Origin: a virus | Taxonomy: Duplodnaviria > Heunggongvirae > Uroviricota > Caudoviricetes | IMG/VR virus record: IMGVR_UViG_2606217105_000011 | Length of the DNA stretch: 13,365 nt | Direction: 5' to 3' (one strand) | Shown here: one piece after another, positions 1,762 through 13,365 of the stretch | How positions within the stretch are numbered: position 1 is the first letter of the stretch | Layout: every line of letters starts with the position of its first letter | The notes under the pieces: generated by a model | Databases searched by the model: none | Told to the model about the DNA's origin: nothing | What the model saw: only the letters and a program-made list of their open reading frames with translations | Made by a program: the position numbers and the translations under genes

Positions 1762-2089
1762 CAATCGTTTGTTAAAAGCGTAGATAACCACTTATTCAAC
1801 AACTTGAAAATAAGGTATTTTACCTGGGTTGTTACAAAAGGATTGCATTGCGTAAACGCTTTTTATTTACAAAAAAATGGGGAAGTGTTACAGCGATTGC
1901 GAAAAGCCTGAAGCGGTTGAATTAAGATAATATAGAAAATCAGATACAGCAAAAATGGCAGATTGATCAGGTGAAGATAAATTGGAGCGGGCGAAGGGAA
2001 TCGAGGAAACCCATAATAACCTGCTGTAAAATAAAGATTTTGTGATCAATCATAGGTAACTGATTACGTGATAATAGAGGATCATTATC

Positions 2090-3310
2090 GTGTCGATCAA
2101 GAGCCAAGCATACTTATTTAAAAGAAAAGATGGGATCTGGATGTTTCAGATTTTTGTTCCTAAATACTTACGTCATCTTTACCCTTATAAGTTGTGGAGA
2201 AAAAGCACATCTACACGAGATCTGAATGAGGCGAGAAGATTCAGAAACCATCTATTATTAGAATGGGAGGAACTAAAGCGAAAACATAATCCTGATAACC
2301 CCGAAAGGAGGTTACAAAAAGCTATTGAATCCTTACATTCAGAGGCAAGGGCCAATAAAAACACGCAAAGAGCCGTAAAACGCGGTTATGCACCGCCTTC
2401 CCTGTGCCTAATACGTGACGAATACGCCGAATGCTACAGAGAGCGTCGTTCATACTCAACACTACAGAAATCAGCAAGGGCCGTTGAGCTATTTTTACAA
2501 AGCATTCAGAAAGATGATATTCATATTGAGAAAATAGGCAGACGGCTTGTAACAGTATTCTTAGATGACCAGAAGCAACGAGGAGCAGCCGATCAATCTC
2601 GTCAAAACTGGCTTACATGCTTAGGATCGCTCTATGAATTTGCTAAACGCCGTTATGACGGAATACCAGACAGTAACCCTTTTCACGGTCATAACCTCGA
2701 AGCACGTCGCACAATCGAGAGTTATCAACCGTTTACACCTGAACAAATGCAAAAGCTACTTGATGCAGCGGAGCCGGAGATCAGAAATATTATTTTAATG
2801 GGCTTGTTTTCAGGATGCAGATTAGACGAACTGGCAAGCCTGAAAAAGTCAGAGGTTGTAACTGTGGAAGGAATACGCTGTTTTTATATCAGCAAGAGTA
2901 AGACTAAAGCAGGGATCAGACACGTTCCGATACATTCGAGACTATCGATTATTGTCGATGAATATTTAAATCATAATTATGGTGAATATTTGTTCCCTCA
3001 CTCGAACAAAGTAAAAAGAATCGACGGCAAGAAAGGCCCGTTCTATTCTCAAGCATTCTCACGTTTACGTCGTAACGTCTTGCCAATCGCTACAGATAGA
3101 CAATGCTTTCACAGCTTGCGCGGGATGTTTATCACTTGTCTTGATCGTGCCGGAGTGCCTGAACAGCGGATCGGAGCCATTACCGGACATACAGAGCAGA
3201 GAGCTAAAACAGAAGCCTTTCGCACCTACTCACAAGGGGCAAGCATTCCAGAATTAGCTGAATATGTAGAATTAGTAAAATATGAATTAAATATTGATTT
3301 TAAGGCGTAA
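2090..3310 (+). CDS. int: Tyrosine-type site-specific recombinase (phage/island integrase), 406 aa, GTG start
   Basis: C-terminal catalytic signature readable in the translation: R in GCRLDELASL, K in the SKSKTKAG hairpin region, H-x-x-R in CFHSLRGMF, H in ITGHTEQ, and the nucleophile Y in FRTYSQG about 36 residues after HxxR. The N-terminal region looks like an arm-type DNA-binding domain. Upstream GAGGAT serves as an SD-like sequence. Confidence 0.85.
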   Translation: MSIKSQAYLFKRKDGIWMFQIFVPKYLRHLYPYKLWRKSTSTRDLNEARRFRNHLLLEWEELKRKHNPDNPERRLQKAIESLHSEARANKNTQRAVKRGYAPPSLCLIRDEYAECYRERRSYSTLQKSARAVELFLQSIQKDDIHIEKIGRRLVTVFLDDQKQRGAADQSRQNWLTCLGSLYEFAKRRYDGIPDSNPFHGHNLEARRTIESYQPFTPEQMQKLLDAAEPEIRNIILMGLFSGCRLDELASLKKSEVVTVEGIRCFYISKSKTKAGIRHVPIHSRLSIIVDEYLNHNYGEYLFPHSNKVKRIDGKKGPFYSQAFSRLRRNVLPIATDRQCFHSLRGMFITCLDRAGVPEQRIGAITGHTEQRAKTEAFRTYSQGASIPELAEYVELVKYELNIDFKA

Positions 3311-3417: not shown

Positions 3418-5259
3418 TTAACTTGGTGCTTGCCCAGACAGAGCCGCCAACGTGAAACTACGTTCAAAATCTTGTTGGATACTTCCCACTTTGTAATCGA
3501 GGTATGATCCAAGCTGACTACCATCAGGGGCGATATTCACATCCACCTTGCTTTCCGGCACGTTTACGACGATGTTCGGTGCATACGTCATAGATGGGGT
3601 AGTGTTCAGATCACGGCTAACGTTCTGTTTCAGGGATTGCACGTTATCAGATGGGCTTGCATAGTTCTGAATTGCAGTTCCGCCAGTCGTTGGCTTGTCT
3701 TCCGTGCCAGGAATAGGATCTAAGCCTAAAGCACTACGACCCCAATCAACCATACCACCTACAAACGAGTCCTTATAATACATACCGGACGAATCAAGGT
3801 TTTCATGCTTGTTCTCTGGGTTGATATTTTGGTATGCAGCAGTAAGCCACGATACAGCACCAGCAAAGGCGCTCATCATTTCAGCCGTTGAGCTTCCAAG
3901 TTCTTTAAACAGAGGATTCAAATCTTTCAACATTTGCGCCCACTCTTCACCAGCTTGAGCATCGAACTCTTCACCAAATCCAGTCATGATAGCTTTCTTA
4001 CTACCTTCCCATGCCATATTCATATTTGCCTGTACCGCTTGCAGACGTTCGGCAGCGTCCAGATCCGCTTGTGTATAGGTGGCATTGGCCTTTTGCATCT
4101 TAACGATGGTCTTGTTTAGCTCTTCACCATTACGACTAAAGGCACCACGGAAATATTGCAAATCATTGCCCAGGTCTTCAAGGATGTGCCCGATTTCTTG
4201 ATCTGATAATCCACGGCGTTCACCTTCTTTCACTACAGCGCCCAGGAAACCTAAAGGATCAGTCTGGAAACCTTTAACCTGTTCAGGTGACCAGCCATAT
4301 TTATTAAGGATGTTATCGACGGCACCATTACCGCCAGCCCAGCGACCTTTCTTAGCGTCCCATTTGGTATTCCCTACGGATTCACCTAAACGTTCCTGAA
4401 CGTCTTTAAGGTTGTCTTGACGTTGGTCTACGGAACTATCAACACCGTGTTCTAAGCCGTACTGGTTGAGAGCTAACAGGGCGTTAGTGTTTACGTTGAC
4501 AGCCTTTGCCTTGCGGTTAGTGTCTGTGATCTTGCTTGCCTGATCGGTTACGGTATTGAATATCGCAGCACCGCCGAAAGTAGCAGCAGTGAGAGCGGCA
4601 CCGCCTACCATTGCACCGACACCAGCGCCCATATGACCACCTTTAAGCTGTTTAGCCATATGTGGGTATTTACCGCCATCAGCCGCCACCTGGCGAGCTT
4701 TTACAGCAGCCGCACGGCGTTCTAACGTGATACGATCACGGATCAGGTGATTCATCTTAGCCTGGCTTATAGCGCCTTTCTCATACGCTGCCGTTTGTGC
4801 TTTGATGTATTGCAATGTTTTGTAGTACTGGGCGCTATCCATACCGTCGCCCATACGCCCTTTTTTGATGCCTTCAAGCTGTCTAAAAGCTTGCTGGCGT
4901 TTAATCTCTGCCTTCTCTGCTATTGTCGCTTTAGCGCGGATCTGTTTATCGGCAGCTATAGCGGCTTTAGCTTTCGCTTTAGCTTCTGCCTTTGCCACCT
5001 TATCAGCGTTCTTCTTGTCCGTTTGAGCTTGCTTGTCTGACGCTTTAGCATCAGCTTTAGCCTGTGTAGCTTTACGAGCCTTTACCAGATCATGAGCATC
5101 GTCTATAGCTTTTTTAGCCTTCTTCCCTTTCATCGTTGGATTGGTTAGGTTTTCCATTTCTTTTTGAAATTTCTTCCCTGCATCGCGTGCTTTCTGCAAT
5201 GATGCAAAATCAACTTTAAATACAACCTTGTTTGTTAAGGTTGAGATGTTTAAATCCAT
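3418..5259 (-). CDS. Phage structural protein, 613 aa: N-terminal Lys/Ala-rich coiled coil, central Gly-rich hydrophobic segment, large C-terminal domain (tape-measure-like, scaffold-like or internal/ejection protein; identity unresolved)
   Basis: ATG at 5259 with AAGGAAAA SD; stop 20 nt after the preceding gene. Composition features: KAKAKAAIAADKQIRAKATIAEKAEIKRQQ repeats, then GGHMGAGVGAMVGGAALTAATFGGAAIF. No motif I can assign to a named family by eye. Confidence 0.5.
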   Translation of the reverse strand: MDLNISTLTNKVVFKVDFASLQKARDAGKKFQKEMENLTNPTMKGKKAKKAIDDAHDLVKARKATQAKADAKASDKQAQTDKKNADKVAKAEAKAKAKAAIAADKQIRAKATIAEKAEIKRQQAFRQLEGIKKGRMGDGMDSAQYYKTLQYIKAQTAAYEKGAISQAKMNHLIRDRITLERRAAAVKARQVAADGGKYPHMAKQLKGGHMGAGVGAMVGGAALTAATFGGAAIFNTVTDQASKITDTNRKAKAVNVNTNALLALNQYGLEHGVDSSVDQRQDNLKDVQERLGESVGNTKWDAKKGRWAGGNGAVDNILNKYGWSPEQVKGFQTDPLGFLGAVVKEGERRGLSDQEIGHILEDLGNDLQYFRGAFSRNGEELNKTIVKMQKANATYTQADLDAAERLQAVQANMNMAWEGSKKAIMTGFGEEFDAQAGEEWAQMLKDLNPLFKELGSSTAEMMSAFAGAVSWLTAAYQNINPENKHENLDSSGMYYKDSFVGGMVDWGRSALGLDPIPGTEDKPTTGGTAIQNYASPSDNVQSLKQNVSRDLNTTPSMTYAPNIVVNVPESKVDVNIAPDGSQLGSYLDYKVGSIQQDFERSFTLAALSGQAPS

Positions 5260-5277: not shown

Positions 5278-5493
5278 TTATTTATTCTGTTTTGATACGT
5301 AATATTGCACTGCTTCCATAGCGGAACAGCCTGTAGCAAAAATTCTTTGACGTACAGCGGTATTAGAGATCCCTAAAAACTTACATACTTGTGAGATATT
5401 TAGAATATCTTCCGGTAAGGTGGAAACAGCTTTCAGGATTTCAACGGGATTGTTATTTTGTGTGTTCATGGTTTTCTCACTTTTATTCGACAT
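5278..5493 (-). CDS. Small HTH DNA-binding protein (excisionase/AlpA-like or regulatory); probable true start at the internal ATG 5469 (MNTQ..., 63 aa)
   Basis: Helix-turn-helix-like segment DILNISQVCKFLGISNTAVRQRI. The internal ATG has a weak GAGAAA SD while the first ATG has none. Located between the capsid gene and the 613-aa gene in the same operon. Confidence 0.45.
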   Translation of the reverse strand: MSNKSEKTMNTQNNNPVEILKAVSTLPEDILNISQVCKFLGISNTAVRQRIFATGCSAMEAVQYYVSKQNK

Positions 5494-5613: not shown

Positions 5614-6642
5614 TTACGCTACTGTGATCTGTACAGTGAAGCCTACGCCGTGGTTTACAACCATCTGGCTATTCTCGGTAACTACGTTTACAGCGTCGTT
5701 ACGTGCTGGGCTAAATGCATAGCTGTAATATTCAGCCGATCCAGAGTTCAGAAGGTCGAACGTTGAAGAAGGAGCGCCGAAAATGTTCTGATAGACGTTA
5801 GAGCCTTTAGCGAACTTCGGAACAGCCACCGCATCAGAAGTCATATGAGCCAGCAGCAGCGGATCGGTAACTTTGATCAGATCAATGTTAGTGCCTGGAA
5901 TAGTGAAGGTAGTCACACCTGGCAGCAGGGAGCGCACACTATAAACGATGTTTGCGTCATCGGTAGGGCTTGCATACTGGAACGCGTTAACCATGCCAGC
6001 ACTGTAACGGATAGCGTTAAATGCAGCAGGTTTACAGAATACAACGATACGCTCTACAGCAGCCGCCTGGCTTTGTGCTTTAGTAATAACGTCTGTATGC
6101 ATCTGATCGAATTGCTGGAACACCATAGAAGGCGTGGTGCTTGATGCGTCGATGGTTGCAGTCAGCGGAACAGCACTAAACAGATCGCCCCACTGAATCA
6201 GCACATCGTCAGTTTTAGGGGTGTAGGTGCGACCACTAAACAGGGAAGCAGCCAGTACGCTTTCTTTAGTACGCTGGAAAGCAATGTGGTGCTTAGCAAC
6301 ATATTCCGCGTAGATATCTGTCAGAGTCTCTTCAACGGTAGCGCCTGGTTTACGTTTGCCTTGAACGTCTTGCGGCTTAATCATATCTTCACGCAGGAAG
6401 TAGGGGATCTCTACTAAAAATTCTTTACCCTGTTCACGTTTAGTCACGTTATGTTCAGAAGAGAAACGAGAGGTTTCTTTGTTGAACAGAGATTCGTTAG
6501 TTTCCACCAGTTGGCTAACAGCCACTTTATGAGAACTCACACCTACCGGATCAGTGAAGTCCAGAGTAGTTAACAGGAAGTTGCGAGAGTCGTGCAGACT
6601 AAACAGCGGAGCCAGATCGACGGATTCATTACCAATAATCAT
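5614..6642 (-). CDS. Major capsid protein, lambda gpE-like family (342 aa)
   Basis: ATG at 6642 with AAAGGAATAAACATA upstream. Length matches lambda gpE (341 aa). By-eye colinear motif resemblance to lambda gpE: DLAPLFSL vs FDPLFLRLF near the N-terminus, IVVFCKPAAFNAI vs NIIVFDPKGWALF, DANIVYSVRS vs DVAIVVYSGQ, and C-terminal GFTVQITVA vs EFVSVQLA. Not search-verified. Confidence 0.6.
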   Translation of the reverse strand: MIIGNESVDLAPLFSLHDSRNFLLTTLDFTDPVGVSSHKVAVSQLVETNESLFNKETSRFSSEHNVTKREQGKEFLVEIPYFLREDMIKPQDVQGKRKPGATVEETLTDIYAEYVAKHHIAFQRTKESVLAASLFSGRTYTPKTDDVLIQWGDLFSAVPLTATIDASSTTPSMVFQQFDQMHTDVITKAQSQAAAVERIVVFCKPAAFNAIRYSAGMVNAFQYASPTDDANIVYSVRSLLPGVTTFTIPGTNIDLIKVTDPLLLAHMTSDAVAVPKFAKGSNVYQNIFGAPSSTFDLLNSGSAEYYSYAFSPARNDAVNVVTENSQMVVNHGVGFTVQITVA

Positions 6643-6660: not shown

Positions 6661-7032
6661 TTAAGATGTGAATACAGTGTTAAAACCAGCCATCTGGAAG
6701 CCTTTAGCAGCCAGAGCAGCAATAGCGGCTTCTTTAATAGCGCCTTCAACATTCAGAGCATCAGACTTGATGCAAACCAGTCCGGCATTGCTACGCAGCA
6801 CGTTAACGGTTTTAGCGTCGCCAGCGGATACCGCATCAGACACAACCACAAGAACATCGCCGCCGCTTACATATTCAGCGCCGTTACTGGTAATCAGATC
6901 GCCGCATTCCACATCAACCGCCAGATCAACGGTAAAAGATTGCACACAACCGAACTCATCAGTTGCATAGCTCACGATATCGGTAAATGATTTGCGAACT
7001 GGAAACAGATCGCTCATATTAATAATAGCCAT
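6661..7032 (-). CDS. Small capsid-associated protein, candidate head decoration/cementing protein (123 aa)
   Basis: Positional only: encoded immediately upstream of the gpE-like capsid gene (as gpD is in lambda), has a decoration-protein size, is Gly/Ala/Val-rich, and has a strong SD (AAGGAAA). I could not see convincing sequence similarity to lambda gpD. Confidence 0.3.
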   Translation of the reverse strand: MAIINMSDLFPVRKSFTDIVSYATDEFGCVQSFTVDLAVDVECGDLITSNGAEYVSGGDVLVVVSDAVSAGDAKTVNVLRSNAGLVCIKSDALNVEGAIKEAAIAALAAKGFQMAGFNTVFTS

Positions 7033-7034
7033 AA

Positions 7035-7250
7035 TTAATAGTTTCCTTTTTTGGATTGTTTGATTTGTTCTGCTTTTGCTTTAATCAGATCCTGCATAGT
7101 AGGCTTCTGTTCATCAGCAGACTTAAAAAGCTTATCACAATGTTTTTTCAATTCTGTTGGAGTGATCCCCAACATATAAGCCGTAGCATTGAATGTTTCA
7201 TCAGTGATAATCAATTCTTCGTTACCATTCTTTAGAATGAGATTTTGCAT
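7035..7250 (-). CDS. Hypothetical small protein (71 aa), first gene of the capsid operon
   Basis: ATG at 7250 with AAAGGTAAAG upstream; its stop abuts the next gene's SD/start (7032). No recognisable motif. Confidence 0.4.
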   Translation of the reverse strand: MQNLILKNGNEELIITDETFNATAYMLGITPTELKKHCDKLFKSADEQKPTMQDLIKAKAEQIKQSKKGNY

Positions 7251-7825: not shown

Positions 7826-7865
7826 CAGTTGGTTAAAAAGATGAGGGGCCAAGTCCTTAGCCCCT
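7826..7865 (-). terminator. Putative intrinsic terminator (minus-strand orientation) downstream of the small-gene operon
   Basis: Stem AGGGGC(7844..7849)/GCCCCT(7860..7865) with a 10-nt loop. On the minus-strand RNA it is followed by CUCAUCUUUUUAAC. About 265 nt downstream of the last gene of the operon (ends 8130). Confidence 0.35.
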
Positions 7866-8129
7866 GCATTCTTAAGACACAATATGATAAAGCAATAAGG
7901 AAAATAAAATGAAACTATTAACGAGGGAAACAATTTCTAAAAATCACTGTAAAGGGAAAGCGAGGCAGGTTAGATAGGGCGCGACCCCTTGAGGTCTACC
8001 CCGCTTTCGTGTAGGATTAGAATCGGTAGAAGGTTTAACGCCAGCTAACACCTGTTTTCTATTCTGCCCCCTATATTTCTTATTATATAACATTTCTGTT
8101 AGAAAGTCAATAGGTAAATCAAAGTTTTT

Positions 8130-8342
8130 TCAGTTCTTTTCGTTCGTTAACTGCCAATCACCAAATACACAATTACCATCTAAAACAATTGTTTGTTCGT
8201 TACCGTTATCATCGGTTACGTGCATCAGGCGGGTGTAATTGTCGAGATTGCCAGTGTAGATCTTGCCTACTGTGAAGCAATTACCCGCTTTGCCTTCTTC
8301 TGTGAGTGCCAGGAGGCGCACACGTTTAGTTTTTACTGTCAT
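8130..8342 (-). CDS. Hypothetical small protein (70 aa)
   Basis: Start at 8342 overlaps the stop of the upstream gene (translational coupling). Last gene of a minus-strand operon. Confidence 0.45.
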   Translation of the reverse strand: MTVKTKRVRLLALTEEGKAGNCFTVGKIYTGNLDNYTRLMHVTDDNGNEQTIVLDGNCVFGDWQLTNEKN

Positions 8343-8650
8343 TAGTTGTTAGCCTTATCGATTAGTTGTGCTATGAGTGGTTGCAAGTCTGCTACCGCTT
8401 GTTGCATGATTTCAGTGGTGTCATTGATCACGGTAATCAGGTTATTCAGATCATCAGCTTCAATCTGTGCACCTTCGGATTGTTTGCACGCTTCAATAAG
8501 CAATTGCAGTGCTTCCCGCGTCGATTCCAGATTAATAACCGCCTGTGTGATGGTCAGTTCGCTTGGAAAGGTCAGAGCCGCATTAACTGCTTTCTGTAAA
8601 GAAATAATAAGATCGTACATCTGAAGCGTTACGTTGTGTGTAGTGCTCAT
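8342..8650 (-). CDS. Hypothetical small acidic, predicted all-helical protein (102 aa)
   Basis: Start at 8650 overlaps the stop of the upstream gene. Strong excess of D/E over K/R in the translation. Confidence 0.5.
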   Translation of the reverse strand: MSTTHNVTLQMYDLIISLQKAVNAALTFPSELTITQAVINLESTREALQLLIEACKQSEGAQIEADDLNNLITVINDTTEIMQQAVADLQPLIAQLIDKANN

Positions 8651-8871
8651 TATGCCACTTCCTCTAATTGTTCTAATTGTTGTTGTGCTTCGCGTGCTTT
8701 CTTCATAGCGATAGTGAGCGGAATTTTATAAGTTGCAATGCTGTCTATAACGTCATCCAGAATTGCCAGATCGTTCTCTTCCTTTGCTCGTTCGATAATA
8801 TCTATGAAGCATTCTGAAAGAAGCTTGAGATCGTGAAAAGTGGTTGTCTCTAAAATTGCTTTGTTAATCAT
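8650..8871 (-). CDS. Hypothetical small acidic helical protein (73 aa)
   Basis: ATG at 8871 with AAAAGGAAAA SD; stop overlaps the next gene's start at 8650. Confidence 0.5.
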   Translation of the reverse strand: MINKAILETTTFHDLKLLSECFIDIIERAKEENDLAILDDVIDSIATYKIPLTIAMKKAREAQQQLEQLEEVA

Positions 8872-8912
8872 TTTATTTTCCTTTTGTTAAGGGTTATATT
8901 CATCTAATGCTG

Positions 8913-9293
8913 TTAATCGTCAATGTTTACTTTATCAAGTAGAAGTAAGTCTGTTTCTCGAACTCCTGCATATTGCAGGCTATTAAGCGCCATATACCCC
9001 CTAAAATGGGCCATGTCTGAAAATCCCAAACATTGCCATCTTTTAAGAAGACTACTATCAATGATTGTTGTTTTGCGTGGGCGTGGATTGAAGTAAACGC
9101 CAGGCATACTTTGAATGATTGATAATTCTGTGTCTGTTAATTCTGGGCTTGGTTCTTCAAGTATGAAGATCAATTCTTCGCCTGGTTCCGCATCATGCTC
9201 ATAGTTATATTTACGAGGATTGTTTAACGCATACTGATCACATGCTTCGCCAATAGTTGTTATTACGTTTTTCTTACCTTTTTTCTTGCTCAT
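8913..9293 (-). CDS. Hypothetical protein (126 aa), Lys-rich N-terminus
   Basis: ATG at 9293 with GAAGGGGAAG SD. No recognisable motif. Confidence 0.5.
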   Translation of the reverse strand: MSKKKGKKNVITTIGEACDQYALNNPRKYNYEHDAEPGEELIFILEEPSPELTDTELSIIQSMPGVYFNPRPRKTTIIDSSLLKRWQCLGFSDMAHFRGYMALNSLQYAGVRETDLLLLDKVNIDD

Positions 9294-9414
9294 TGCTTCC
9301 CCTTCGTTTTGTTTTTCTTGTTGCAGTGTTAAAAAAGGAAGCGATCATAAATACTAAGAAAAATATTAAGCTTTCCATTGTTTCACCCTTCAAGATGTTT
9401 GATAGTTGTTTGTT

Positions 9415-9633
9415 TTAAGCTACAGAGTCGATTCTGAATGCTTTCATATGAGTTTTGGTATACTGCAATAATCCTTGTTTACTTAGGCTATCGAGAAGAG
9501 CATATAAAAATTGCTCACCTACCACACCGGAAAACTCAGAATCAAACAGAATCATTCCCGTTCTTTCCCGTAAATATTGCAGAAAGGTTTCTTGTGAAAA
9601 TTCGCTATCGAATATGGTCACAGCGCCACCCAC
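9415..9633 (-). CDS. Hypothetical ORF (72 aa from a GTG start, no SD); may be the C-terminal part of a split or frameshifted gene
   Basis: Frame is open from 9651 with a GTG at 9633 and no convincing SD. It overlaps the end of the upstream ORF by 16 nt with a 34-nt two-frame-open window (9618..9651). Confidence 0.25.
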   Translation of the reverse strand: MGGAVTIFDSEFSQETFLQYLRERTGMILFDSEFSGVVGEQFLYALLDSLSKQGLLQYTKTHMKAFRIDSVA

Positions 9634-9875
9634 AATTCGAAAGGGCTTATCTCAAGCAAACGGAACGTCTGACTATTCACAGCCTCATACTTAATTACCC
9701 CAAAATGGCTCAGGTGATTTAACCAGTGCTGTGTGTGTTCTTTACTATGAGGTAACTCCTGCCAGCTGATAATCGCGGGTAGCTCATAATTGCTATCAGC
9801 AAGCTGTTTTGCCAGTGTGTAGCCGCTTTCTGTAATTTCGAATGTTCGTTTGTTTAATGTCAGGTTGTATTTCAT
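9618..9875 (-). CDS. Hypothetical protein (85 aa); possibly the N-terminal part of a frameshifted gene continued by 9415..9633
   Basis: ATG at 9875 with AAGGAGAA SD. Its frame ends at 9618 while the downstream ORF frame is already open from 9651. Confidence 0.45.
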   Translation of the reverse strand: MKYNLTLNKRTFEITESGYTLAKQLADSNYELPAIISWQELPHSKEHTQHWLNHLSHFGVIKYEAVNSQTFRLLEISPFELWVAL

Positions 9876-11867: not shown

Positions 11868-11919
11868 GTAGGAACTCATTTCCTGGGTAGGTAGGAACTC
11901 ATTTCCTGGGTAGGTAGGG
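11868..11919. repeat. Tandem direct repeat, 2 copies of a 23-bp unit GTAGGAACTCATTTCCTGGGTAG plus a partial third copy; each unit contains the palindrome AGGAA-N5-TTCCT
   Basis: Seen: 11868..11890 and 11891..11913 are identical, followed by GTAGGG. Internal inverted repeat AGGAA(11870..11874)/TTCCT(11880..11884). Lies in a 1.2-kb ORF-free region. Iteron/operator-like. Confidence 0.7.
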
Positions 11920-12181
11920 AAACCGCACTATACACTGGTAAGTGTCTTGCACAGAAAAAGGTATCAAAAATGTCTAAAGCCCCTTTAGATAAAAATGATA
12001 CCTTTATACATGCGCTAATAGCGCGCATAACAATAACCTACTAACAACTAACTAACTAAAAAGTAAGAAGATGTTGTTATGATTAGTGTATCGCTCAACG
12101 CTCACATCTATCTCTGATCTATAAATTGGTAACTGTCTAACAACAACAAACTGATCCTACCCACGTAATATGGACACAGGC

Positions 12182-13048
12182 CTAAGCGAGGTTCTGGTTT
12201 TCAAATTGTTCCGGACTGAGGCCGCCACACCAACTGTGCCGCCGCCACCGATTGTAATCACATTCGATATAATTAAACACCGTTGCCCGCATTATTTCCC
12301 GGCTGATAAAGTGTTCTCCATGGATACATTCCACTTTCAGCGAATGAAAGAAGCTTTCCACGCAGGCATTATCGTAGCAGCAACCTTTTGCGCTCATACT
12401 TCCACGCAGATTATGCCGCTTCAGTTGCGCCTGATAATCTGCTGAACAGTACTGGCCTCCACGGTCCGTGTGAACGATAACGTTCCGGGGCCTCTTACGC
12501 CGCCACAGCGCCATCTGCAGGGCATCGCAGGCCAGTTGCGCCGTCATGCGTGGCGACATTGACCAGCCAATAACGGCACGTGACCACAGGTCAATGACCA
12601 CTGCCAGATACAGCCAGCCTTCATCTGTACGTAAGTACGTGATGTCTCCTGCCCACTTCTGGTTCGGGCCACTGGCGTAAAAATCCTGCTCCAACAGATT
12701 TTCTGACACAGGCAGGCCGTGTGCGCGGTAGCTGACCGGGCTGAACTTCCGGGAGGCCTTTGCCCTCAGTCCCTGACGGCGCAGGCTTGCCGCCACGGTT
12801 TTTACGTTAAAGGGGTAACCCTGAGCACGCAGTTCATCCGTCAGGCGTGGGGCACCGTAACGCTGTTTTGACCGGGTAAAAGCCGCGAGGACAACGCTGT
12901 CGCAGTGTTGGCGGAACTGCTGACGCGTGCTTATCCTTGTCCGCCGCTGACACCACGTATACCAGCCGCTGCGGGCCACCCGGAGCACGCGGCACATTGC
13001 TTTGATGCTGAACTCAGCCTGATGTTTTTCAATAAAGACATACTTCAT
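12182..13048 (-). CDS. insF: IS3 transposase OrfB (InsF-like, DDE)
   Basis: Translation identical to the 318..1184 ORF. Confidence 0.92.
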
Positions 13049-13344
13049 TTCAGGCGCTTCGCGAAGTATGTCGCGGCCTTTTGGAGGATAGCCAGCTCTT
13101 CATCCCGTTCTGCCAGCTGGCGTTTGAGACGTGCAATCTCGGTAGACATCTCCAGTTCACGTTCAGAAGACGTCTGCTGATTTTGCTGTTTACTGCGCCA
13201 GTTGTAGAGCTGTGATTCATACAGGCTGAGTTCACGGGCTGCGGCAGTAACACCGATGCGTTCAGCAAGCTTCAGGGCTTCACTGCGAAATTCAGGCGAA
13301 TGCTGTTTACGGGGTTTTTTACTGGTTGATACTGTTTTTGTCAT
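13045..13344 (-). CDS. insE: IS3 transposase OrfA (InsE-like)
   Basis: Translation identical to copy A orfA; ATG start placed at the mirrored position of 22. Confidence 0.92.
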
Positions 13345-13365
13345 GTGAGTCACCTCTGACTGAGA

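Follow-up and report, generated by a model that had tools for sequence, protein, structure and literature searches.

The window analysed here, a stretch of 13,365 nucleotides recorded in IMG/VR as a virus of the Caudoviricetes (IMGVR_UViG_2606217105_000011), contains on its minus strand an open reading frame (ORF) of 613 codons, which starts with ATG, spans positions 3418–5259 and is labelled a hypothetical protein in the NCBI annotation. We describe here the relationship of its product, a protein of 613 amino acids (aa), to the tape-measure proteins (TMPs) of large myoviruses, and the integrated element, referred to below as the island, in which its gene resides. The gene begins 18 nt past a 71-aa gene (5278–5493, minus strand), the spacer holding an AAGGA-type ribosome-binding site, and it is convergent with the gene for a tyrosine integrase (2090–3310, plus strand), the ends of the two genes facing each other. 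The plus strand across 3418–5259 is riddled with stop codons. The gene and the parts of its product that are discussed below are the following:

3418..5259, minus strand: gene for the 613-aa TMP homologue, as seen from the ORF, the match to PHROG 16051, the alignment with ESCO5 gp244, the profile match to Phi92_gp134 and dN/dS
5155..5259, minus strand: N-terminal motif of the TMP, aa 1–35, with 43–51% identity between the island TMP and that of ESCO5 (next 125 residues, 16%)
4555..4632, minus strand: Gly/Ala-rich hydrophobic segment, aa 210–235, with a Kyte-Doolittle maximum of 1.56 and an equivalent in 11 of 11 aligned members
4060..4524, minus strand: central helical domain, aa 246–400, with 45–50% identity to the phage (ESCO5) TMP and pLDDT 84–94
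3421..3519, minus strand: C-terminal segment of the TMP, aa 581–613, with the motif F..L.L...SGQ, as seen from the residues invariant in alignments A1 and A2

The 613-aa protein is matched by PHROG 16051, annotated as 'tail length tape measure protein' (E 2e-67, aa 215–611), and also by PHROG 2854 (E 9.5e-16, aa 211–471). Its BLASTP alignment with gp244 of phage ESCO5 extends over aa 1–611 with 27% identity (E 4e-62); gp244 is a protein of 662 aa, and the gene order at its locus is sheath, tube, tail assembly chaperone, TMP and baseplate. A family profile based on alignment A1 matched the PDB chain 21vq_V (Phi92_gp134) over the whole chain with an E-value of 1e-152, a value which comes from a profile that includes a phage protein, viz. 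ESCO5 gp244. In the cryo-EM structure of phi92, gp134 is a trimeric TMP whose C-terminal residues 631–656 are resolved within the baseplate, and the product of the next gene, gp135, is a hexameric tube initiator (PMC13450770). The conserved C-terminal residues of the 613-aa protein align with the part of phi92 gp134 that is resolved in the baseplate. Of these residues, F598, L604, S608, G609 and Q610 are invariant in alignment A2, and in A1, inclusive of the phage protein, L604, S608, G609 and Q610 are also invariant and F598 is nearly so. The C-terminal motif is thus a probable baseplate-docking segment. The identity between the TMP of the window and the ESCO5 TMP is very uneven, as in addition to the two regions of higher identity listed above (aa 1–35 and 246–400), the segment with the SGQ motif shows 27–35% identity and all other regions show 16–30%. 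In the N-terminal 35 aa, in aa 246–400 and in the C-terminal motif, the conservation between island and phage TMPs equals that between different islands, whereas the remainder of the protein has diverged. A 40-residue helical insertion of the phage TMP is missing from the island TMP, and the hydrophobic Gly-rich stretch is found at the matching position in all 11 aligned family members, the phage TMP included.

Further evidence comes from broader searches. In BFVD, the named fold matches that Foldseek returned for the model of the 613-aa protein are TMPs. A Foldseek search of the AlphaFold2 model against the PDB gave no match below E=1, and this search is uninformative because the model is extended and of low confidence over half its length. 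Pfam gave no match for the protein at E<=0.1. Some homologues carry names such as 'SPFH domain-containing' or 'cell envelope integrity protein', which are probably low-complexity artefacts, as the alignment with TMPs is full-length and no such Pfam domains are found. When 50,697 phage records were searched by tblastn, 134 matches were obtained, essentially all of them to ~150-kb myoviruses of the Stephanstirmvirinae, covering the C-terminal two-thirds of the 613-aa protein at ~30% identity; the number of phage records with a homologue is 134 for each of three different island TMPs, which represents essentially the entire phage group. A scan of 1.84 billion representative proteins yielded 313 clusters at E<=1e-3 and 41 clusters at E<=1e-30, the remoter TMP-like matches being proteins of 600–900 aa that are matched chiefly across the hydrophobic segment and the central domain (profile positions ~185–470). 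Based on these alignments, it is clear that the 613-aa protein is a full-length, diverged homologue of the TMP of Stephanstirmvirinae phages (phi92/phAPEC8 type). A first-pass annotation, made from the letters of the window, had called the protein tape-measure-like from its composition, and the homology bears this out.

The same annotation had divided the protein into a Lys/Ala-rich coiled coil, a Gly-rich hydrophobic stretch and a large globular C-terminal region. The hydrophobic stretch is present as described: the Gly-rich segment GAGVGAMVGGAALTAATFGGAAIF is located at aa 211–234 and is the sole strongly hydrophobic segment of the protein (the Kyte-Doolittle maximum given above is for 19 residues, at aa 216). 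For the region that precedes it, the composition holds (Ala 23% and Lys 16% in aa 61–210), and in the AlphaFold2 monomer model, which was built from a 33-sequence alignment, aa 18–193 form long helices; however, in a crude heptad a/d test, the score of the helical region was not above that of shuffled sequences, and due to this the description 'helical' is supported, but 'coiled coil' is not. Of the supposed globular region, aa ~240–400 do form a confident helical domain, but the final ~200 residues that follow have pLDDT <50. The model is helical and, except for aa 78–193 and 240–400, of low confidence; the hydrophobic Gly/Ala-rich segment is disordered in it (pLDDT <50).

Of 5426 complete E. 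coli genomes, 64 have the gene, in each case intact and at full length, and the allele of the window is present at >=99% identity in one of these 64 genomes. In comparison with the copy in an uninterrupted island of E. coli (locus L002), the dN/dS is 0.09 for the TMP gene (dS 0.215) and 0.10 for the gene of the major capsid protein (MCP) of the island (dS 0.176). The TMP gene is under purifying selection, and because it is intact in 64 complete genomes and has a dN/dS of 0.09, the 613-aa ORF is not a chance ORF. Between the E. coli copies, dS is 0.035 for the integrase and 0.007 for the replication gene. As the structural genes, with the dS values given above, are far more diverged than these two genes, recombinational mosaicism within the element is indicated.

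The window as a whole is not a phage, but holds a large part of a ~14-kb element integrated at tRNA-Gly (glyU). The features of this element that lie within the window, other than the TMP gene, are listed below:

1983..2004, plus strand: att-type repeat of 22 bp, which matches the 3' end of tRNA-Gly (glyU) exactly and lies just upstream of the integrase gene; no such match is expected by chance
2090..3310, plus strand: tyrosine integrase of 406 aa (Pfam Phage_integrase, 1.3e-12; DUF6538, 2.1e-9; PHROG 1, 2e-38)
5278..5493, minus strand: gene for a 71-aa helix-turn-helix (HTH) protein, directly upstream of the TMP gene in every island locus
5614..6642, minus strand: MCP gene, 342 aa (Pfam Phage_cap_E, 1.7e-10; PHROG 29, 6.9e-11)
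6661..7032, minus strand: 123-aa gene, which always precedes the MCP gene and is conserved in position and sequence in the island family
7035..7250, minus strand: 71-aa gene, the first of the structural operon, with same-position homologues in the related loci L003 and L007 (48–61% identity)
8130..9875, minus strand: block of small genes (70, 102, 73, 126, 72 and 85 aa), probably regulatory, with 77–92% aa identity to L003
9888..10553, minus strand: replication-initiator-like gene, 221 aa (Pfam HTH_36, 1.1e-4; PHROG 270/391/186, replication initiation or helicase loader)

The window begins and ends with IS3 (1–1215 and 12151–13365; orfA of 102 aa and orfB of 288 aa), the two 1215-bp copies being exact and in inverted orientation. 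The left copy truncates ygeQ, a fragment of which lies together with the island between the IS3 copies, and the right copy cuts a non-coding part of the island at ~12151, so that the last ~4 kb of the element, with a 192-aa integrase-like gene and three genes of no assigned function adjoining glyU, lie outside the window. In other E. coli genomes, the uninterrupted island sits between ygeQ and glyU; strains PM4-5, EC38 and SCU-102 are examples of carriers of an uninterrupted element. In L002, the 22-bp repeat is found both at the equivalent site and in glyU, the two copies being 14.2 kb apart, and the bounds of the element are defined by these repeats.

The structural operon has the order 71-aa gene, 123-aa gene, MCP, HTH and TMP, and the position of the 613-aa gene right after the capsid gene and a small HTH gene, as it was first described, is confirmed. 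It was also correctly observed that this is not where TMP genes normally sit, as the gene lies between the HTH gene and the convergent integrase gene and not in a tail module. The MCP of the window aligns over its full length with the ESCO5 MCP at 24% identity. The 71-aa HTH protein has a Sigma70 region-4-type HTH, the Pfam family Sigma70_r4_2 matching 6 of 9 family members (best E 9e-4). The 123-aa protein, for which no Pfam or PHROG match was found, is a candidate capsid accessory, cement or scaffold protein; a role as decoration protein was considered and set aside, as no similarity to the head-decoration protein of ESCO5 was seen by BLASTP or hhalign. Virion genes other than those for the MCP and the TMP are lacking in the element, to which a gene for a Dit-like protein is added in some variants. 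Pfam and PHROG searches of the window, of the remainder of L002 and of the related element L003, which assembled as a circle, detected no gene for a portal, terminase, sheath, tube or chaperone, and tblastn with the portal, scaffold, sheath, tube, chaperone, hub and spike proteins of ESCO5 found no homologue in the element.

Outside the structural genes, the small-gene block at 8130–9875 gave no family matches in the Pfam and PHROG scans, and the Rfam and tRNA scans of the window gave no matches. The 880-bp gap upstream of the structural operon contains a near-consensus promoter (TTGACT-17-TATAAT, 8110–8082, minus strand) and, ~215 nt after it, a terminator-like hairpin (7865–7844), the stretch that encloses both (7838–8110) being almost identical in L003. 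This stretch may encode a small RNA or represent a leader under the control of antitermination; its predicted RNA fold is not significantly stable (z -1.64) and it has no Rfam match. A 1.2-kb gene-free region upstream of the early genes contains two exact tandem copies of the 23-nt unit GTAGGAACTCATTTCCTGGGTAG, which has the palindrome AGGAA/TTCCT within it, and close to them a near-palindrome of 23+23 nt (11868–11913 / 11957–12005 region). These repeats and the near-palindrome are candidate operator, origin or packaging sites.

The relatives of the TMP gene show that this arrangement is not limited to the window. A search of 5.8 billion proteins returned one E. coli cluster of 449 sequences and a large set of proteins of 615–621 aa with 30–36% identity from Klebsiella, Citrobacter, Enterobacter and Pluralibacter, to which scans of GTDB genomes and IMG/VR add Scandinavium, Kosakonia, Buttiauxella, Kluyvera and Pseudenterobacter. 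With all sources pooled, homologues occur in ten enterobacterial genera, and among the matches listed 111 of 120 homologues have the size of 615–621 aa. When reference proteins were mapped onto 33 further loci, 25 of these (chromosomal or proviral) showed the order variable replication gene, p126, p119/128, MCP, HTH, TMP, with or without the Dit-like gene, and integrase, and no homologues of sheath, tube, chaperone, hub, spike, scaffold or portal proteins were found in these 25 island loci. The other 8 loci are phage genomes of the ~150-kb type, in which a complete tail module flanks the TMP gene. The replication gene occurs across the island family in three unrelated forms (HTH_36 type, DUF6945 and DEAD-like helicase). 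The capsid proteins form two lineages with ~18% identity, which are nevertheless homologous (hhalign 96.9%, E 1.4e-10); the capsid-like protein of L003, which is tied to the MCP of the window solely by profile-profile comparison, has no match in the 50,697 phage records and none in Pfam or PHROGs. While the small regulatory genes of L003 share 77–92% identity with those of the window, the identity of its TMP is just 36%. L003 is a contig of 14,281 bp with a 30-bp terminal overlap, which gives a circle of 14,251 bp, matching the att-to-att size. Of the other ~13-kb Klebsiella contigs, one is chromosomal.

If the TMP gene were the leftover of a decaying prophage, moved beside a capsid gene by deletions and without present function, then most virion genes would be expected to be missing, as they are, and it would be of no surprise that the window copy is flanked and cut by IS3 and that NCBI labels its product a hypothetical protein. 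However, a shared compact gene order at 25 loci, with 30–36% TMP identity between lineages and a distribution over ten genera in all, a dN/dS of 0.09–0.10 at dS ~0.2, and the full length of 64 of 64 copies in complete E. coli genomes are not the marks of decay. Further, the phages with the homologous TMP are of ~150 kb, with no integrase detected in the stretches examined, and in the islands replication and capsid modules have been swapped as units. This explanation is therefore largely refuted, and we regard it as extremely improbable. The first-pass annotation had held that a confident match to a canonical TMP family, with tail genes adjacent in all homologous loci, would make the gene a simple deletion remnant. 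The match to such a family was indeed found, but tail genes adjoin the homologue only in the 8 phage loci and not in the 25 island loci; thus its proposed comparison of neighbourhoods gave a divided answer, the capsid-side module being present in 25 of 33 loci and adjacent tail genes in 8 of 33. Because the 25 loci share a capsid-HTH-TMP-integrase module, the gene should not be interpreted as a simple deletion remnant, but as a conserved part of a small mobile element.

Some observations on the ends and copies of related elements may be added here. At the far end of complete elements (L002, 18040–20480; L004, 1563–3890; also L009 and L011) there is a second, short tyrosine-recombinase-like gene of 190–205 aa, and the Klebsiella members also have a Dam-type methyltransferase with an HTH there; the circular L003 has the short recombinase only, plus an HNH/endonuclease VII-like gene. 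On contig_39 of Citrobacter sp. NCU1, two islands (L013 and L020), one per capsid lineage, lie ~13 kb apart, which suggests tandem integration.

The Dit-like protein that is encoded after the TMP gene in some variants (Pfam PF21821, 6.7e-28) shows 62–64% identity to the Phapecoctavirus protein whose gene comes right after that of the phage TMP, and by its position this gene is the apparent equivalent of that for the phi92 tube initiator gp135. A neighbour-joining (NJ) tree has one clade of phage TMPs and two further clades of island TMPs, and because the island clades are separate from the phage clade, the TMP gene appears to be an old and stable part of the element and not a recent capture. 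These results also bear upon a possible role of the protein outside of tails, viz. as a capsid-size scaffold, an internal head protein or a membrane-active ejection protein of the element's own particle. The location of the gene within the capsid operon, the single hydrophobic Gly-rich segment of its product and the neighbouring 123-aa partner gene without identified function are all in keeping with such a role. However, the alignment with genuine TMPs spans the protein from its first residue to its last ones, with the putative baseplate-docking motif kept, the hydrophobic segment is itself a feature of phage TMPs, and the tube initiator as the next gene in the variants represents tail-module synteny. 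Hence, a non-tail role is very unlikely, and the suggestions made at first that the protein could be a size-determining scaffold, an internal or ejection protein or a repurposed structural protein have received no support.

Taken together, the integrase and att sites, the replication module, the minimal and incomplete set of virion genes, the length of 14 kb and the exchange of modules are the hallmark of a phage satellite. Neither this satellite-like character nor the strand, the flanking IS3 copies or the integrase and att context figured in the first-pass annotation. For portal, terminase, sheath, tube, chaperone, baseplate and fibres the element has no genes, and these functions would therefore be borrowed from a helper. 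With moderate confidence, we consider the 613-aa protein to be the TMP of a small, integrative, satellite-like element, which has its own capsid protein and its own TMP and whose TMP is substituted into tails made by the helper. The basis of this reading is provided by homology, gene content, module conservation, purifying selection, att sites and one circular assembly, and a satellite lifestyle, a particular type of helper and the entry of the TMP into virions are what these would imply. The helper would most likely be a myovirus of the Stephanstirmvirinae (phi92/phAPEC8 type) or a yet unsequenced relative, the link to this type being drawn because the Dit-like gene is so similar (62–64%) to its Phapecoctavirus counterpart just behind the phage TMP gene. 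If this is correct, then upon infection by the helper the element would excise and replicate, and small capsids would be built from the island MCP. Attached by its conserved C-terminus to the helper baseplate as a starting point, and with the aid of the helper chaperone, the island TMP would enter helper-made tails in place of the helper TMP, this entry being mediated by the conserved N-terminus, the central domain and the C-terminal docking motif. The chimeric tails would probably be slightly shorter (TMP of 613 versus 659–662 residues), and the resulting particles would carry the 14-kb genome. Tail length follows a rule of ~1.5 Å per TMP residue; scaling from this rule and from the result for the Vibrio PLEs described below, the 46–49 fewer residues predict tails that are ~5–7 nm shorter, which would amount to one to two of the 24 tube rings of phi92; for PLE, 10 nm of tail go with a difference of 95 residues.

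Several points weigh against this interpretation. Excision, helper-dependent transfer and particles are predictions from gene content, and the circle formed by L003 could have causes besides an excised form. The TMP and MCP are just 24–40% identical to any sequenced phage protein (27–40% for the TMP and ~25% for the MCP), and because of these low identities and the separate clades in the NJ tree, the helper is an inferred one and may be unsequenced. Additionally, the element is without a tail assembly chaperone, which the PLEs have, no recognisable packaging function was found among its genes, a satellite capsid protein would have to co-assemble with a helper portal, and the window copy, interrupted by IS3, may be immobile.

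The same low identities could also indicate a different helper, in which case the element would be a satellite with the same TMP mechanism, but its helper would belong to an unsequenced, possibly temperate group outside of the Stephanstirmvirinae with closer TMP and capsid proteins. Apart from the identities, this is favoured by the capsid lineage without any phage match and by the island TMPs not being nested in the known phage clade. However, the Dit-like gene of the variants is by its 62–64% identity close to the tube initiator of Phapecoctavirus, the PLE proteins are equally diverged from those of ICP1 (20–41%) and yet work with ICP1, and among the 41 clusters obtained at E<=1e-30 from 1.84 billion representative proteins there was no obviously closer group. 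We thus regard a helper of this other kind as unlikely.

A different question is whether the island TMP serves the transfer of the element at all. In the phage loci L037–L044, the TMP is 42–71% identical to that of ESCO5, whereas the identities are 85–93% for the tube, 88–90% for the MCP and 81–93% for the hub; this divergence is compatible with diversifying pressure on the TMP. If the island TMP, and perhaps the MCP, acted only as poison subunits that enter or block the tails or heads of an infecting phage in assembly, to the protection of the bacterial population, then the phage TMP would be a targeted protein, and its higher divergence than that of the tube or MCP (85–93%) is as expected of such a protein. 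It is also in favour of interference that the regions conserved with the phage TMP are those that a competitive subunit needs, and that the blocking of tail assembly is a known defence of mobile elements, as in the Tai systems (PMC11364771) and Rta of PLE11 (PMC12987554). However, a decoy needs neither full length nor a size as strictly kept as that of the homologues listed above, nor would it have to be inherited together with a capsid gene, an integrase, a replication module and att sites. Further, interference and own use coexist in PLE, and interference is thus compatible with the use of the TMP in the element's own transfer. That the proteins serve interference alone is in our assessment improbable.

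Returning to the reading in which the island TMP is built into helper tails, it can be extended to the family as a whole, which may represent widespread satellites in Enterobacteriaceae of virulent ~150-kb myoviruses of the phi92/phAPEC8 type, replacing the MCP and TMP of the helper and, in some members, also its tube initiator. We offer this wider proposal only tentatively, giving it somewhat less than an even chance. In the literature, for which our coverage is incomplete and an earlier description is possible, we found no satellite of phi92, phAPEC8 or other Stephanstirmvirinae phages and no E. coli or Klebsiella satellite with a TMP. That a satellite can encode a TMP is already known in principle, as is the protein family, and what appears to be new is the presence of an own capsid protein and an own TMP, without a portal, in one element. 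Satellite-encoded TMPs and chimeric tails were first demonstrated in 2026 in the Vibrio PLEs (PMC12987554). If the interpretation is true, then the island family would be an independent case, with the advantage that E. coli and Klebsiella are easy to handle genetically and that the structure of the helper type (phi92) is solved; among satellites it would be the first outside Vibrio to manipulate tails, in tractable and clinically relevant hosts, and the first known in which head-shell and tail-core proteins are substituted together. An own capsid protein and TMP without a portal also raise the questions of how a shell of foreign protein is put together on the portal of the helper and by what means a foreign TMP is preferred to that of the helper. 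The presumed helpers are of the virulent phage kind used in therapeutic collections and cocktails (e.g. PMC10269720, PMC13193621), and ~1% of complete E. coli genomes and many Klebsiella isolates could carry an element that interferes with phages of the therapeutic type. The swapping of replication and virion modules should also be useful for the study of satellite-helper coevolution.

In comparison with the TMPs of the Stephanstirmvirinae, the island TMP shows homology over its whole length and the same order of N-terminal motif, Ala/Lys/Arg-rich helical region, Gly-rich segment, central domain and SGQ motif. It differs from them in its identity of only 27–40%, in being 46–49 residues shorter and in missing the 40-residue helical insertion, and while the phage gene lies between those for the chaperone and the tube initiator in a 150-kb phage, the island gene is found beside a capsid gene in a 14-kb integrated element. 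By its gene content, the island family is not P4-like, nor is it PICI or cf-PICI. Satellites of the P4 type are ~11–14-kb elements at a tRNA gene, which depend on a helper for their virion and have size-matched small capsids. The island resembles them in its integration at a tRNA gene, its similar size, a presumed helper-dependent virion and the small capsids that are expected, but P4 uses the capsid protein of its helper with an external scaffold (Sid/Psu remodelling of P2) and has no capsid or tape-measure gene, and no match to the P4 markers (Sid/Psu/Delta, alpha primase-helicase) was found among the ORFs scanned against PHROGs and Pfam. The 'Phanie' system of Acinetobacter was also considered and set aside, as it reportedly works by a different mechanism. 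In the SatelliteFinder criteria, a cf-PICI has a full head module of portal, protease, head-tail connectors and small terminase; no Pfam or PHROG matches of this kind were obtained for the ORFs of the element, and no homologue of the ESCO5 portal was found in any island locus. These capsid-forming PICIs are similar in being integrated enterobacterial elements with an own capsid protein and, as proposed for the island, helper tails, and putative tmp genes have been pointed out in some of them (PMC12987554, Extended Data Fig. 10). MCP and TMP genes also occur together in the mycobacterial EPIP satellites, for which the authors suggest that the TMP alters the hijacked tails (bioRxiv 2025, PMC12822802). 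However, the EPIPs differ from the island in their actinobacterial host, siphovirus helper and serine integrase and in also having a small terminase, adaptor, stopper and scaffold, and as far as can be judged they are unrelated to it in sequence.

The closest parallel, which is one of presumed function and of organisation only, is with the PLEs of Vibrio cholerae. The PLE encodes its own TMP, chaperone and hub BhuB, which are 20%, 20% and 41% identical, respectively, to their ICP1 counterparts (PMC12987554), and these parts are selectively incorporated, leading to chimeric tails that are 10 nm shorter, while transduction suffers without the PLE tmp gene (Nature 2026, PMC12987554). The island family differs in belonging to another host family (Enterobacteriaceae), in having no chaperone gene, in being known so far at the level of genes, and in encoding its own MCP, whereas PLE remodels the ICP1 coat protein. 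In both cases, however, a small integrated element encodes a TMP that is far diverged from, and shorter than, that of a large virulent myovirus, and in some members an adjacent gene for a baseplate or tube-initiator protein shows a higher identity to its phage counterpart (62–64% here and 41% in PLE).

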